Positions 52,563 through 62,745 of a stretch of 64,000 bases of DNA are shown here, piece after piece; positions within the stretch are counted from its first letter, which is position 1; every line of letters begins with the position of its first letter. The stretch is from the sequence record MZ065353.1; one strand, given 5' to 3'. This DNA comes from Escherichia virus KFS-EC3. Below the pieces are notes generated by a model. That model worked only from the letters and a program-made list of their open reading frames with translations, was not told where the DNA came from and did not search any database. A program made the position numbers and the translations under genes.

Positions 52563-53259
<697 letters not shown>

Positions 53260-53271
53260 TTTCACAAAGTT

Positions 53272-53301
53272 GTTTACATGCTGATGAGGTAGTGATACTA
53301 T
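53272..53301 (+). promoter_or_regulatory. early promoter module, copy 1 (TTCACAAAGTTGTTTACA...GTAGTGATACTATTA)
   Basis: GTTTAC at 53272-53277; -10-like GATACT/TACTAT at 53294-53301. Confidence 0.6.
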
Positions 53302-53331
53302 TATCTCATCAAAATTAATTAGGAAAATAAA

Positions 53332-53589
53332 ATGAAAACTTTCAAAGAGTTTGCTACAAAAACCACTATCACTGAATCTTCTCACGGTATGGAAGTAAAG
53401 CTTGGAATGGCTTTAGCTGAAGCTGAGCGTCTTTTCTCTCGTATTAAAGAACTTGCTGCTGCAGTCGATCCTTCATCTTTTAAAGGAGACCAAACTAAAG
53501 TTAAAGCACTTTTAGCGTTATGCTCCGATGCAGGAGAAATTGCTAAAAATGGTTCTAAGATGAAGAAACGATTAGAAGATTTAAAATAA
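53332..53589 (+). CDS. internal-protein-like small protein with capsid targeting sequence (85 aa)
   Basis: N-terminus MKTFKEFATKTTITE|S has the IP-type leader ending in an (L/I)xE protease site; early promoter upstream. Confidence 0.65.
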   Translation: MKTFKEFATKTTITESSHGMEVKLGMALAEAERLFSRIKELAAAVDPSSFKGDQTKVKALLALCSDAGEIAKNGSKMKKRLEDLK

Positions 53590-53601
53590 TTTCACAAAGT
53601 T

Positions 53602-53631
53602 GTTTACACAGGGTTTTAGTAGTGATACTAT
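53602..53631 (+). promoter_or_regulatory. early promoter module, copy 2
   Basis: Same 18-mer TTCACAAAGTTGTTTACA as copy 1; GTTTAC at 53602-53607; GTAGTGATACTATTA at 53619-53633. Confidence 0.6.
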
Positions 53632-53665
53632 TACCCTATCAAAACAAAATCAAATGGAAATCAAA

Positions 53666-53899
53666 ATGAAAACTTTCAAAGAGTTTATCGCTGAATCTTC
53701 TGATGTAAAAGTTGAGTTTATTTACACTGGCAAGAAAGATAAAATGGGTGAAATGCCTTATGGAGTTCTTCGTGATGCATTAGATAATTTCGGTCAACTC
53801 GCCGCAGAAGATTACGGTGATAAAATTGTTGTTACTGGTCCTGCTGCAGTTATTGAAAAATGGGCAGCAGAAAATAAATCAATTTTTCGTAAAAAATAA
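53666..53899 (+). CDS. internal-protein-like small protein with capsid targeting sequence (77 aa)
   Basis: MKTFKEFIAE|S leader (IAE site). The track ORF at 53600 is extended upstream through the promoter. Confidence 0.6.
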   Translation: MKTFKEFIAESSDVKVEFIYTGKKDKMGEMPYGVLRDALDNFGQLAAEDYGDKIVVTGPAAVIEKWAAENKSIFRKK

Positions 53900-53929
53900 G
53901 TTTACTTTTAGATGGGGTAGTGATACTAT
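53900..53929 (+). promoter_or_regulatory. early promoter module, copy 3 (partial upstream half)
   Basis: GTTTAC at 53900-53905; GTAGTGATACTATTATCTCATCAA repeated as in copy 1. Confidence 0.55.
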
Positions 53930-53957
53930 TATCTCATCAACTACTGAGGAGAATAAA

Positions 53958-55422: not shown

Positions 55423-55495
55423 TGGGAATTAGCCAAGTTGGTAAGGCACTGGATTTTGATTCCAGGATGCAAAGGTTCGAGTCCTTTATTCCCAG
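55423..55495 (+). tRNA. tRNA-Gln (anticodon TTG)
   Basis: Manual cloverleaf: acceptor tgggaat/attccca, anticodon loop ttTTGat, T-arm ggttcgagtcc. Confidence 0.8.
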
Positions 55496-55496
55496 C

Positions 55497-55583
55497 GCGA
55501 GAATGGTCAAATTGGTAAAGGCACAGCACTTAAAATGCTGCGGAATGATTTCCTTGTGGGTTCGAGTCCCACTTCTCGTACCA
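55497..55583 (+). tRNA. tRNA-Leu (anticodon TAA), long variable arm, encoded CCA
   Basis: Acceptor gcgagaa/ttctcgt, anticodon loop ctTAAaa, T-arm ggttcgagtcc, 3' ...a-cca. Confidence 0.8.
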
Positions 55584-55589
55584 AAGTTT

Positions 55590-55661
<72 letters not shown>

Positions 55662-55673
55662 AAATTTAATTTA

Positions 55674-55747
55674 CTCCGTGTAGCTCAGTTTGGTAGAGCG
55701 TCTGCTTTGGGAGCAGAATGTCGTAGGTTCAAATCCTGCCGCGGAGA
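55674..55747 (+). tRNA. tRNA-Pro (anticodon TGG)
   Basis: Acceptor ctccgtg/cgcggag, anticodon loop ttTGGga, T-arm aggttcaaatcct. Confidence 0.8.
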
Positions 55748-55749
55748 CT

Positions 55750-55836
55750 GGAGGCGTGGCAGAGTGGTTTAATGCACCGGTCTTGAAAACCGGCAGTCGC
55801 TCCGGCGACTCATAGGTTCAAATCCTATCGCCTCCG
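55750..55836 (+). tRNA. tRNA-Ser (anticodon TGA), long variable arm
   Basis: Acceptor ggaggcg/cgcctcc, anticodon loop ctTGAaa, T-arm aggttcaaatcct. Confidence 0.8.
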
Positions 55837-55843
55837 TAATTTC

Positions 55844-55916
55844 GCTGATTTAGCTCAGTAGGTAGAGCACCTCACTTGTAATGAGGACGTCGGCGGTTCG
55901 ATTCCGTCAATCAGCA
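55844..55916 (+). tRNA. tRNA-Thr (anticodon TGT)
   Basis: Acceptor gctgatt/aatcagc, anticodon loop ctTGTaa, T-arm cggttcgattccg. Confidence 0.8.
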
Positions 55917-55922
55917 TATCAA

Positions 55923-55994
55923 GGCCCTGTAGCTGGAAGGTTCAAGCAAGCGACTCATAATCGCCAGATGGTGGTTCAATTCCACCCAGGGCCA
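55923..55994 (+). tRNA. tRNA with CAT anticodon (Ile by T4 precedent, lysidine-modified; Met by sequence alone)
   Basis: Acceptor ggccctg/cagggcc, anticodon loop ctCATaa, T-arm ggttcaattcc. Confidence 0.75.
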
Positions 55995-56035: not shown

Positions 56036-56701
56036 ATGTTCCATTACATTTATAAAATAACAAATAAAATTAATAATAAAATCTATATAGGCGCTCATTC
56101 TACCGAAAATTTAGATGATGGATATATGGGTTCTGGCAAATTATTAAAAAGAGCCCAAGACAAGTATGGTATAGAAAATTTCTCTAAAGAAATATTAGAG
56201 TTCTTTGACGATAAAACCTCTATGTTTGAGTCAGAAAAGAATATTGTGACTGAAGAGTTTTTAAAGCGCCCTGATGTTTATAATTTGAAATTAGGTGGTG
56301 AAGGTGGTTGGGACCATTTAAACACTAAAGAATATTTGGATAAAAAGAAAGAAGCTTCCTTAAAAGGAGCTGCCGCTTTTAAAACCAGATTTGAGAACGA
56401 CCCAGACCTTAAAGAAAAATATCGTAAAATGGGTTCAGAAAGGTTTAAACAGCTTTGGGATAATCCTAAGTATAGAGAGAAATTTTTAAATACTAAATCT
56501 TTCTTGGGTAAGACCCATACTCCTGAAACTATTAATAAAATGAAAGAATCTCACGCCAGAAATAAACACCAACAGGGCGAAAAGAATTCCCAATTTGGTA
56601 TGATGTGGATTCATTCATTAGATGAAAAAGTTTCTAAACGTATTAAGAAAACTGACCCAATTCCAGAAGGATGGTTTAAAGGTCGAAAAATGAAATTTTA
56701 A
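56036..56701 (+). CDS. segB: GIY-YIG homing endonuclease SegB-like, embedded in the tRNA cluster
   Basis: 221 aa; N-terminal GIY-YIG-type motif FHYIYKITNKINNKIYIGAHS; located between tRNA-Ile and tRNA-Arg as T4 segB is. Confidence 0.8.
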   Translation: MFHYIYKITNKINNKIYIGAHSTENLDDGYMGSGKLLKRAQDKYGIENFSKEILEFFDDKTSMFESEKNIVTEEFLKRPDVYNLKLGGEGGWDHLNTKEYLDKKKEASLKGAAAFKTRFENDPDLKEKYRKMGSERFKQLWDNPKYREKFLNTKSFLGKTHTPETINKMKESHARNKHQQGEKNSQFGMMWIHSLDEKVSKRIKKTDPIPEGWFKGRKMKF

Positions 56702-56704
56702 TTA

Positions 56705-56781
<77 letters not shown>

Positions 56782-56784
56782 AAC

Positions 56785-57097
56785 AAGAAACCGGGTCGCT
56801 ACCGGTAAGTCGTCGGACTGATGTTCCCTGAGTAAGGAATTGCGTTAATAATCTTTACGTTTATTGATGCCCCCTTATATCACAGCAGAAACGGCGCACC
56901 GAATTATCGATTCGAGGAAATATCTTTGCCGTAAGCCGAGTAGCGTTTTTGACGGAACGTTCGGATACGGTCGAGATATGGCCTTTTAAAAAATATTGAG
57001 TAGCGTCAACTGCTTAATAACCGGGTTCGAATCCCGGCGTTTCGTACAAACACTTGCCTTAGCAGGTGGAACCCCGACAAGGTTGCCGCAAGGCTTA
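56785..57097 (+). ncRNA. small stable RNA region (T4 species 1/2, rnaC/rnaD-like), including a tRNA-like element with a canonical T-arm at about 56953-57045
   Basis: No ORF; ccgGGTTCGAATCCcgg T-arm with a pairing acceptor stem (cggaacg/cgtttcg); ends at a strong terminator; same position as the T4 stable RNAs downstream of tRNA-Arg. Confidence 0.5.
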
Positions 57098-57125
57098 GCC
57101 CCGACCGAAAGGTTGGGGCTTTTTA
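57098..57125 (+). terminator. rho-independent terminator (9-bp stem, GAAA loop, T5)
   Basis: gccccgacc-gaaa-ggttggggc followed by ttttt. Confidence 0.75.
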
Positions 57126-57126
57126 G

Positions 57127-57134
57127 TATAAATA
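57127..57134 (+). promoter_or_regulatory. late promoter TATAAATA upstream of the IP-like gene
   Basis: Exact TATAAATA about 40 nt upstream of the ATG at 57175. Confidence 0.55.
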
Positions 57135-57174
57135 TAGTAGTATATTAAATCCACGAATTAAAACAGGAAATAAG

Positions 57175-57648
57175 ATGAAATCATATGCTCAATTTTTAAA
57201 TGAAGCGGTGTTAAATGAAGCATCTAGCACCGAAATTCAAGCTGTCGCAAAAGCTGCCATTGCCGCGGGTAAATATTCCTATAAAGATGCTTCCGATGAA
57301 TCACGATTCCAATTTGCTCGTGATATGAAAGCCGAAGGATTTACAGGGAATGCAGTTAGTATGGCTTGGAAAAGTTTAGTTGCTACTGGCGCTGCTTTTG
57401 CAAAGGCTTCGGGTAAACCTGCTCCTAAAGCAGATCCTAAAGTCGCACAAGAGAAAAATATTGTTAAAGGAATTATCTCCAAATATGAAGCTATCCTTAA
57501 AGAGCTTTTAGTAATCAAAACTGAAGGCCAAAAACTGGCTCGTGCTTATAGTTTCAAAGATAACCCACATGCTCACTCTCTTGAGTATGTTGAAGACATC
57601 CAAAAAATTATTAAAGACCGCATTTGGTCTGCTAAACAAATCAAATAA
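57175..57648 (+). CDS. internal-protein-like protein with capsid targeting sequence (157 aa)
   Basis: MKSYAQFLNE|AVLNE|A gives two (L/I)xE prohead-protease sites near the N-terminus; flanked by terminators. Confidence 0.6.
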   Translation: MKSYAQFLNEAVLNEASSTEIQAVAKAAIAAGKYSYKDASDESRFQFARDMKAEGFTGNAVSMAWKSLVATGAAFAKASGKPAPKADPKVAQEKNIVKGIISKYEAILKELLVIKTEGQKLARAYSFKDNPHAHSLEYVEDIQKIIKDRIWSAKQIK

Positions 57649-57655
57649 CATTCTT

Positions 57656-57683
57656 AGCCCTAGCCGAAAGGTTGGGGCTTTTT
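57656..57683 (+). terminator. rho-independent terminator, near-duplicate of the one at 57098
   Basis: gccctagcc-gaaa-ggttggggc followed by ttttt. Confidence 0.7.
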
Positions 57684-57805
57684 GGTATCTAGACCTTTCC
57701 AGGCCTCTCTAGACATCATTTAGTTTCTACCCTTTATAATATATTATCCTATCCTTTGATTTCCCCTCCCTGCCCTAGAATTCCCCAAAACTTTTTAAAA
57801 ATTTT

Positions 57806-57846
57806 TTCACAAAACTGTTTACATCCTTGTCCTTCCATGGTACTAT
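57806..57846 (+). promoter_or_regulatory. early promoter, diverged fourth copy of the TTCACAAA..TGTTTACA module
   Basis: ttcacaaaactgtttaca with GTTTAC at 57817-57822; -10 TACTAT at 57841-57846. Confidence 0.55.
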
Positions 57847-57889
57847 ACAACTATCAACTACTGATACAGAAAACAACTTGGAGAATGAA

Positions 57890-58153
57890 ATGGATAATTA
57901 CGGTGAACTGTTCAACTTCTTTATGAAATGTGTTTCAGAAGATTTTGGTCGTACAGTGAATGATATTAAAGTTATCGGTCCTGATCATCCGATGTTTGAA
58001 ACTTACGCAGTAATGGGTAATGAAGATGGTCAGTGGTATACTGTAAAGGTTGTGATTAACATGTTCACAGCAGAAGGTTATGTTAAACTGTCTTCTAAAG
58101 TTTACCACGATAACGACGAAATCGCAGAAGAATATTTCAATAATATGAAATAA
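57890..58153 (+). CDS. hypothetical small protein (87 aa)
   Basis: ATG at 57890 with GGAG ribosome-binding site; the track ORF at 57827 is extended upstream. Confidence 0.5.
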   Translation: MDNYGELFNFFMKCVSEDFGRTVNDIKVIGPDHPMFETYAVMGNEDGQWYTVKVVINMFTAEGYVKLSSKVYHDNDEIAEEYFNNMK

Positions 58154-62271: not shown

Positions 62272-62745
62272 ATGAAAACATATCAAGAATTTATCACTGA
62301 AGCAGTTATTAATTCTCAAATTATTGCTGAATCTTTTACTGATCTTTTGAAATTTAAAAAAGGTCAAAAAATTACTGCTGTATTAGATGATGGTACAGAA
62401 GTTGAGATGGATGTACAGGGATATAATTATGCAGTAGATGGAAAACTGTATAATAAATCTCATGCTAAATTTGATTCATTTGACGACTTTGTTAATACAG
62501 TTGAAGATGAAAAAACTCGTCGATCCATTGCAACTGGTGATGCTAAGGTTCTTATGGCGCACGGTCATGAACGTATCCGCGCCAAACAGAATAAAATGGG
62601 CGAAGATAATTTTGCATTAGTTGGTTATCAATCTGGTAAACAAACTTATGGTTATCAGCGTACTGCTACCATGTATAACAAAAATGGTAAAATTGCCTTT
62701 GTAAATAGTAAAGGTTCTATTCAGTACGTTAAATCGTTCAAATAA
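62272..62745 (+). CDS. internal-protein-like protein with capsid targeting sequence (157 aa; ipII/ipIII position)
   Basis: MKTYQEFITE|AVINSQIIAE|S gives two (L/I)xE sites; adjacent to e, as the T4 ipII/ipIII genes are. Confidence 0.65.
   Translation: MKTYQEFITEAVINSQIIAESFTDLLKFKKGQKITAVLDDGTEVEMDVQGYNYAVDGKLYNKSHAKFDSFDDFVNTVEDEKTRRSIATGDAKVLMAHGHERIRAKQNKMGEDNFALVGYQSGKQTYGYQRTATMYNKNGKIAFVNSKGSIQYVKSFK

Follow-up and report, generated by a model that had tools for sequence, protein, structure and literature searches.

A terminator-bounded late gene at the rnaC/e.8 junction of T-even-type phages: a probable third internal-protein locus

What do T-even-type phages encode between the small RNA rnaC and gene e.8, where phage T4 has no gene, and how did it come to be there? 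The question is raised by a 64,000-nucleotide stretch of DNA from Escherichia virus KFS-EC3 (sequence record MZ065353.1), hereafter the window, in which a 157-aa open reading frame (ORF), designated here gene A (57175..57648, + strand), lies between two nearly identical terminators. The original prediction, made from the sequence alone, described this arrangement as a self-contained expression cassette for an injected internal protein (IP) and attributed it to horizontal acquisition. In our analysis, its reading of the cassette and of an IP-like product holds up, whereas the direction that it gave to the event, acquisition, is probably mistaken. We consider it likely that the rnaC/e.8 junction is a third internal-protein locus of T-even-type phages, with a product that is probably packaged in the capsid and injected. 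Both the type of gene and the type of cassette are already known; the site itself has no name because T4 carries no gene there.

Architecture of the cassette

Every element that the original prediction listed is found in its stated place. Gene A is enclosed by a direct repeat, whose two copies (CTTAGCCCCGACCGAAAGGTTGGGGCTTTTTAGTAT, 57094..57129, and CTTAGCCCTAGCCGAAAGGTTGGGGCTTTTTGGTAT, 57653..57688, both on the + strand) were delimited by a repeat finder as 36 nt each, 32/36 identical (89%), at a spacing of 559 nt; the repeat is slightly longer than first described. Each copy includes a putative terminator, T1 (hairpin 57097-57120, U-tract to 57124) and T2 (hairpin 57656-57679, U-tract to 57683), made up of a 10-bp stem, a GAAA loop, and U5, with free energies of -20.3 and -18.3 kcal/mol, respectively (z about -4 versus shuffles). 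Both have the GC-rich hairpin and U-tract expected of rho-independent terminators. The three differences between T1 and T2 all fall in the 5' arm of the stem and keep the pairing throughout. Even a search that tolerated up to 3 mismatches found exactly two occurrences of the 20-nt core CCGAAAGGTTGGGGCTTTTT in the 64 kb (0 expected), and the sequence 3' of repeat copy 2 (GGTATCTAG...) is the same as that 3' of the single terminator of T4. In the GenBank records of phages RB32 and RB51, the annotators describe the orthologous gene as "flanked by 34 bp imperfect direct repeat."

The last 3 nt of repeat copy 1 (TAT, 57127-57129) double as the first bases of an exact T4-type late promoter motif, TATAAATA (57127..57134, + strand), found where it had been predicted, 40 nt 5' of the ATG. 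It has the features of a T4 late promoter, namely, an element at about -10 and no -35 element. This octamer occurs 23 times in the window versus 9.1 expected, and the promoter is kept at the orthologous place in 8 phages (RB32, RB51, fPS-90, GRNsp7, RB27, SYGD1, phiKp_22, and Cronobacter phage VP8). A Shine-Dalgarno sequence, AGGAAA, read from the sequence (57165..57170, + strand), is located 4 nt 5' of the start codon. The description of the locus as a self-contained expression unit (terminator, late promoter, ribosome-binding site, gene, terminator) is thereby borne out, and it is as a unit that the cassette is present or absent, the corresponding site being empty in T4, PST, and T2.

Cassettes of a comparable kind are the promoter-early stem-loop (PeSL) cassettes of T4-type phages, for which shuffling via mini-circles has been described (Arbiol 2010, Comeau 2014; PMC2839356, PMC4122927). 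Like the A cassette, they consist of a variable ORF between direct repeats of a regulatory stem-loop, related phages have a single copy of the repeat and no ORF, and the repeats serve as sites of insertion, deletion, and exchange. However, PeSLs combine the stem-loop with a sigma-70 early promoter, whereas copy 1 of the A repeat combines a terminator with a late promoter and copy 2 has no promoter, the nearest early promoter lying ~135 nt beyond it. Further, PeSLs are dispersed in many copies over hyperplastic regions, in contrast to the 1 to 3 copies per genome, at one locus only, of the A terminator repeat. Assignment of the A cassette to the PeSLs was rejected on these two counts, promoter type and copy distribution. 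The window does contain a 71-nt repeat family (53244-53314, 53574-53644, 53872-53942, and 57789-57859) with an early-type promoter, TTTCACAAAGTTGTTTACA-N17-GATACTAT. These repeats bracket genes for IpV-like and IpVI-like proteins and precede e.8, a PeSL-like arrangement at the classical ipI locus that is unlike the late-promoter unit.

The product of gene A as a candidate internal protein

Gene A would encode a 157-aa precursor (MKSYAQFLNEAVLNEASS...) of a probable internal protein; its translation begins MKSYAQFLNEAVLNEA. At the N terminus is a leader, MKSYAQFLNE|AVLNE|A (57175..57219, + strand), that resembles a capsid-targeting sequence (CTS): codons 1-10 are similar to MKTYQEFIAE|A, with which both T4 IPII and T4 IPIII begin. 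Codons 11-15 (57205-57219, + strand) are the product of a tandem duplication of five codons (FLNEA/VLNEA), from which a second LNE|A site results, so that (L/I)xE occurs at residues 8-10 and 13-15, as the original prediction had it, and LNE|A at residues 8-11 and 13-16. The AVLNE duplication is polymorphic, being present in the window phage, RB32, RB51, fD1, and GRNsp7 and absent in SYGD1, RB27, and PhAPEC2. Behind the leader, the predicted domains are a helical N-domain (~16-75), a K/P-rich disordered linker (76-93), and a C-terminal helical hairpin (94-157). The mature form is predicted to be basic and rich in lysine (pI 9.5; 20 Lys, 14% Lys).

The family is narrow. Only 14 relatives, all of them phage-like, came out of an exhaustive profile search that covered 1.84 billion representative proteins. 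Distant full-length relatives still begin with M..F.(E/D/S)FL.E, homologs down to ~25-35% identity keep an N-terminal [FY]xxFLxE, and the FLxE site is found in all homologs. The leader is thus better conserved than any other part of these proteins.

Gene A shares a number of properties with the IPs of T-even phages, which have an ~10-aa leader, MK(T/S)(Y/F)x(E/Q)F(I/L)xE, followed by a small residue; are small, nonessential, and polymorphic between close relatives; and show no mutual homology beyond the leader. The basic mature part also resembles those of IPII and IPIII. Judged at the sequence level, gene A thus has the marks by which an IP is recognized: a CTS, an (L/I)xE site followed by a small residue, and a polymorphic, nonessential gene. 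The leader is not a common feature in this DNA: a loose CTS pattern, ^M[KR].[FY].[EQ]F, matched 4/501 ATG-initiated ORFs of at least 50 aa in the window, and the other three encode homologs of PST IpV (53332-53589), IpVI (53666-53899), and IpIV (62272-62745), each with a CTS and a match to a PHROG named for an internal virion or head protein. The window phage is without T4-type ipI, ipII, and ipIII, and its IpIV gene seems to follow gene e directly. The A protein is unlike the T4 IPs in its locus (rnaC/e.8 rather than ipI or ipII-ipIII), in being missing from T4, in belonging to a different fold and family (PHROG 2280), and in the duplicated cleavage site of the window allele.

Absence of the protein from virions, which the original prediction had named as evidence against it, is not what published data indicate. 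The Yersinia phage fD1 product g140, an A ortholog with 98% identity, was particle-associated at the strict threshold in liquid chromatography-tandem mass spectrometry of purified virions (PMC8309999, Table S3). We count this as weak evidence because about half of the fD1 gene products are listed likewise: the proteome has low specificity, with 113-137/277 gene products particle-associated, including DenV, lysozyme, and NudE (PMC8309999). The fPS-90 paper contains no proteomics, and our literature search found no paper mentioning RB32ORF133c or RB69ORF149c. An IP-like product, as originally proposed, is supported by the CTS, the conserved (L/I)xE site, the basic, Lys-rich mature part, the late promoter, and the ortholog in purified virions.

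Besides the low specificity of that proteome, several observations weigh against this assignment. In PhAPEC2, the residue after the cleavage Glu of A is Gln, not Ala, and the promoter is AATAAATA instead of TATAAATA. In the window itself, the IpV, IpVI, and IpIV genes sit behind early-type promoters, not TATAAATA, whereas A is driven by a late promoter alone, behind a terminator, so late-only expression is not a general property of IPs. Searches for function gave only sub-threshold noise in Pfam and nothing in NCBIfam, and the PHROG matched by the protein, PHROG 2280, is labeled "unknown function." A medium-confidence AlphaFold2 model (pLDDT 72) had no Foldseek match in the PDB (best E about 1) and, in BFVD, matched its own family only. 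Separately, a designer pentatricopeptide-repeat (PPR) profile matched A with an E value of 6e-7, with no single stretch passing and one helix-turn-helix aligned in a repetitive target; this likeness lacked Pfam PPR support and was rejected as compositional.

Could A be a late cytoplasmic or assembly-associated protein, with a CTS likeness due to descent or chance and a virion detection due to carry-over? The low specificity of the fD1 proteome would allow it, cleavage and injection of A are predicted by analogy, and the resemblance of A to any IP ends after 10-12 residues. This last point loses force in view of T4 Ip1-3, which likewise share the leader alone (PMC12373910). Against an accidental leader also stand the rarity of the motif in the window, its being the most conserved feature across distant homologs, and its recurrence in unrelated neighbors at the same locus (gene B and a 72-aa ORF of phage VP8, described below). 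We regard a protein of this kind as quite improbable and A as a probable IP, whose cleavage, head residence, and injection are inferred by analogy with the T4 IPs.

Locus states, alleles, and age

The cassette proved not to be universal. T4 and Yersinia phage PST lack the gene and have a single terminator, at which the sequence to the left of T1 passes straight into that to the right of T2 (...CTTAGCCCCGACCGAAAGGTTGGGGCTTTTTGGTATCTA...), and phages T2, RB55, ACG-C40, VEc74, and a Salmonella phage are empty by the span of a flank-only query. In 942 records, the terminator element was counted one to three times per genome: twice in A carriers and once in T6, EP01, and HY03. According to tblastn, A is encoded in 511 phage records (367 at >=90% identity), a few of which lie outside the set of ~790 records that match the flanks, and it is missing from roughly 280 of about 790 flank-matching records.

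The locus exists in the states empty, A, B, A+B, and A plus another gene, with the junctions inside the terminator element. Only A is found in the window, RB32, RB51, RB27, and SYGD1. In fPS-90 and PhAPEC2 (Mosigvirus), A is joined by gene B, which follows T2 and ends with a third terminator that has the U-tract and downstream sequence of the T4 empty site. Pu-Krd-SF1 has only B, with T1 fused directly to the B leader. The product of B, of the RB69ORF149c family, has 187 aa and starts with MKTYAEFLTE|AAKLPSE|A. BLASTP and hhalign align A with B over the first 11-12 residues only; both match PHROG 2280 over their full length, and Jiaodavirus and Yersinia variants bridge the two without reaching significance. 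A and B may be very distant paralogs that share a plan of leader, helical domain, PK-rich linker, and helical hairpin, or PHROG 2280 may be composite. In GRNsp7 (L008 2300-2854), the gene next to A, with no T2 in between, encodes an unrelated protein of 184 aa that is predicted to be a membrane protein (PHROG 2143, unknown function); behind this gene comes a variant terminator, GGCCCTTCCGAAAGGTTGGGCC, and the promoter region upstream of e.8 differs.

The terminator copies also appear to exchange sequence with each other. Both copies in PhAPEC2 (L006 3425-3455 and 3972-4003) carry the variant CCCCTTCC, with two U-U stem mismatches, and so does the downstream terminator of GRNsp7 (L008 near 2870). 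This shared variant suggests copying between repeats (concerted evolution) rather than independent mutation.

Within the tequatroviruses, A occurs as two deep alleles, type 1 (the window phage, RB32, RB51, fPS-90, and fD1) and type 2 (GRNsp7, RB27, and SYGD1). Gene A is under purifying selection: the window and fD1 copies differ at 18 synonymous and 3 nonsynonymous positions, and pN/pS is far below 1. Between alleles, pS is 0.5-0.75, near saturation, and the N-domain (pN 0.18-0.23) evolves 4-5 times faster than the C-domain (pN 0.03-0.05). In a sliding comparison of the window with SYGD1, identity stays at 95% or more across rnaC, T1, the promoter, and the leader, then falls abruptly to ~60% just behind the leader, climbs slowly, and is back at 95% at T2. 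The body of gene A has therefore been exchanged, with the promoter/leader on one side and the terminator on the other as the homology.

Counterparts of the locus are present in more distant phages. In Jiaodavirus phiKp_22, the tRNA/small-RNA region is followed by a terminator, an exact TATAAATA, and an A homolog that begins MKFKEFLAE|A...; it shares the N-domain with A, whereas the C-domain and the downstream terminator differ. In Cronobacter phage VP8, the order is tRNA, terminator, GGTATAAATA, a 72-aa CTS ORF overlapping a 169-aa A homolog (starting MKSFSSFLNE|G...), a terminator followed by TTTTAGTATCC, and the early promoter TTTCACAAAAACTGTTTACA. The 72-aa ORF (L014 2286-2504) begins MKSFTEFLTE|SADLTLTE|A, with two xTE sites, directly behind the terminator and late motif; it is possibly a further internal-protein family.

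Two accounts of this distribution have to be compared. In the first, closest to the original prediction, a circular or linear promoter-gene-terminator module was recently captured at the resident terminator of a T4-like empty site, which duplicated the terminator. The order terminator-A-terminator is the product expected from the integration of a one-terminator circle, as in the PeSL mini-circle model (PMC2839356), and the empty site is precise, although a precise empty site is equally expected from deletion between repeats. The neighboring module gives this account some support as well: identity among 164 of the 165 B records is 95% or more (85% in the exception) across two genera, Tequatrovirus and Mosigvirus, an indication of recent spread. 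For A, the evidence points the other way. A-type genes are found at the same position behind a terminator and TATAAATA in four genera, and alleles that are synonymously saturated between flanks at least 95% identical argue for long residence with allele exchange. We therefore give recent insertion of A little credence.

The second account, which we prefer, is loss. The locus is old, with an architecture that predates the split of the Tequatrovirus, Mosigvirus, Jiaodavirus, and Cronobacter phage genera, because the same layout is seen at the same position in Mosigvirus, Jiaodavirus, and a Cronobacter T4-like phage. Given an ancient locus, deletion between the terminator copies is the simplest origin for the T4-type empty site, and T4 probably lost the gene. 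This preference for loss over gain is a tentative one, drawn from a comparison of loci. Of the horizontal acquisition originally proposed, insertion into an empty site does not stand, given the same architecture in other genera; exchange does, in the form of allele replacement and the gain and loss of modules. The pattern that the original prediction had named as refuting it, a cassette universally present with diverged flanks, is not what was seen: relatives without the cassette exist, and the flanks are at least 95% identical between the window and SYGD1.

Finally, module spread and mosaicism might be due mainly to SegB, by co-conversion after cleavage in the tRNA region, rather than to recombination between terminator copies. 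An intact segB, a GIY-YIG homing endonuclease gene (56036-56701), lies between tRNA genes ~470 nt upstream of the cassette and could drive co-conversion in mixed infections; in such infections, SegB is reported to favor transmission of the T4 tRNA region to the progeny (Brok-Volchanskaya et al. 2008). Yet the boundaries that distinguish the empty, A, B, and A+B states fall inside the terminator repeat, the breakpoints of the allele swap are at the CTS and T2 with no gradient from segB, T4 has segB and still an empty site, and RB27 has A and no segB at that position. A leading part for SegB is therefore unlikely, and recombination at the terminator copies and the leader remains the explanation that we favor.

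Proposed role and genomic neighborhood

The following scheme would accommodate these observations. T1 would stop early and middle transcription coming from the tRNA/rnaD/rnaC unit; the late promoter TATAAATA, overlapping the repeat end, would produce a short monocistronic mRNA ending at T2; and e.8 would restart from its own early promoter. Because T1 would block read-through and a late promoter would drive the gene, the A protein would be made only late, when proheads assemble. The leader MKSYAQFLNE would act as a capsid-targeting sequence and take the precursor into the scaffolding core, where the prohead protease gp21 would cut after LNE10 and/or LNE15 (Glu10, Glu15), giving products with N termini at Ala11 or Ala16 (AVLNEASSTEIQAVAK and/or ASSTEIQAVAK). 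The basic mature protein of 142-147 aa would stay in the head with the DNA and be injected with it. Comparison of the loci further shows conserved handles that serve as recombination sites, namely, at the left border the terminator, late promoter, and CTS and at the right border the second copy of the terminator; exchange at these handles deletes A (probably so in T4, PST, and T2), swaps its divergent alleles, or adds or removes the B module.

After injection, A would be a first-response counterdefense factor, most likely one that inhibits a restriction or defense system of the host, with the fast-evolving N-domain probably binding a variable host target. We base this on that N-domain and on the analogy with T4 Ip1, Ip2, and Ip3, each of which blocks a distinct GmrSD type IV enzyme (PMC12373910), and with Bas37_0260, which inhibits McrBC (bioRxiv 10.1101/2025.11.20.689424); by the same analogy, the target would most likely be a modification-dependent (type IV) restriction enzyme. 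Bas37_0260, an ipI-locus gene product described in the HIDEN-SEQ preprint, is like A in being a recently recognized CTS protein of a T4 relative, unrelated to Ip1-3 and missing in T4; its target has been experimentally defined, whereas A is known here from its sequence.

A packaged A protein could instead have a structural or physical task, such as DNA charge neutralization or an aid to packaging or ejection. Its basic, Lys-rich composition would suit such a task, as would the strong conservation of the C-domain, and in T4, internal-protein lysines are in contact with the phosphates of DNA (PMC3012670). However, A is dispensable in nature, as its absence from T4, T2, PST, and many other records with matching flanks attests; the excess of nonsynonymous change in the N-domain, together with the deep alleles, is the pattern expected of an arms-race binder; and each of the four T-even IPs with a tested function inhibits restriction. 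A purely structural role is improbable in our estimate, and counterdefense is the role retained here.

Exchange of IP genes at one site has a precedent in the ipI locus, where, according to later accounts of Repoila et al. 1994 (via PMC4122927, PMC12373910), alternative CTS genes occupy one slot between conserved flanks and a change in host range was proposed to follow from reshuffling of the IPs. The A locus differs from it in being a separate slot ~3.5 kb away, with modules that are additive (empty, A, B, A+B) and bounded by terminators. This leads to a wider proposal, put forward tentatively, as we consider it somewhat short of an even chance. The rnaC/e.8 junction would be an ancient third IP locus of the Tevenvirinae, unrecognized because T4 lost it, that holds at least three CTS proteins (A, B, and the 72-aa VP8 product) acting as injected inhibitors of host defenses for which no phage antagonist has been matched, and its handles would be the late-gene counterpart of PeSL shuffling. 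In direct comparisons, made between A and B, similarity stops at the leader, although both are placed in PHROG 2280.

The T-even IPs whose function is known, four in all, are narrowly specific blockers of modification-dependent restriction enzymes and help set host range. Together, A and B are encoded by hundreds of sequenced therapeutic-candidate coliphages and Shigella and Yersinia phages, in which they are annotated as "hypothetical." As probable injected proteins, they would represent two candidate antidefense factors, with natural isogenic controls in the empty, A, B, and A+B states of the locus. The locus also offers a clean natural case of regulatory elements and a targeting signal serving as recombination handles for module exchange.

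The window belongs to a Tequatrovirus; the region is 95-97% identical to genomes of that genus such as SG1, RB51, and RB32, and its + strand corresponds to the T4 minus strand. To the left of segB is a tRNA cluster (55423-55994); to its right, tRNA-Arg (56705-56781) is followed by the small RNAs rnaD and rnaC and then by the cassette. An Rfam scan for known RNA families in the cassette returned the tRNAs only. On the other side, the insulated late unit is bordered by the early-promoter module of e.8 (57789..57859, + strand; TTTCACAAAACTGTTTACA-N17-TACTAT, with the promoter itself at 57818-57846), and the ATG of e.8 is at 57890.

Two further observations concern this neighborhood. The tRNA at 55923-55994 is called tRNA-Met (CAT) by ARAGORN, whereas the T4, RB32, and RB51 records list it as tRNA-Ile with a CAU anticodon. 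In addition, a 351-bp ORF (RB69ORF150c-like, 116 aa, no CTS) is located between tRNA-Arg and rnaD in RB51 (L001 1598-1948) and GRNsp7 (L008 1049-1399) and is missing from the window, which marks a second indel hotspot a few hundred bases from the cassette.

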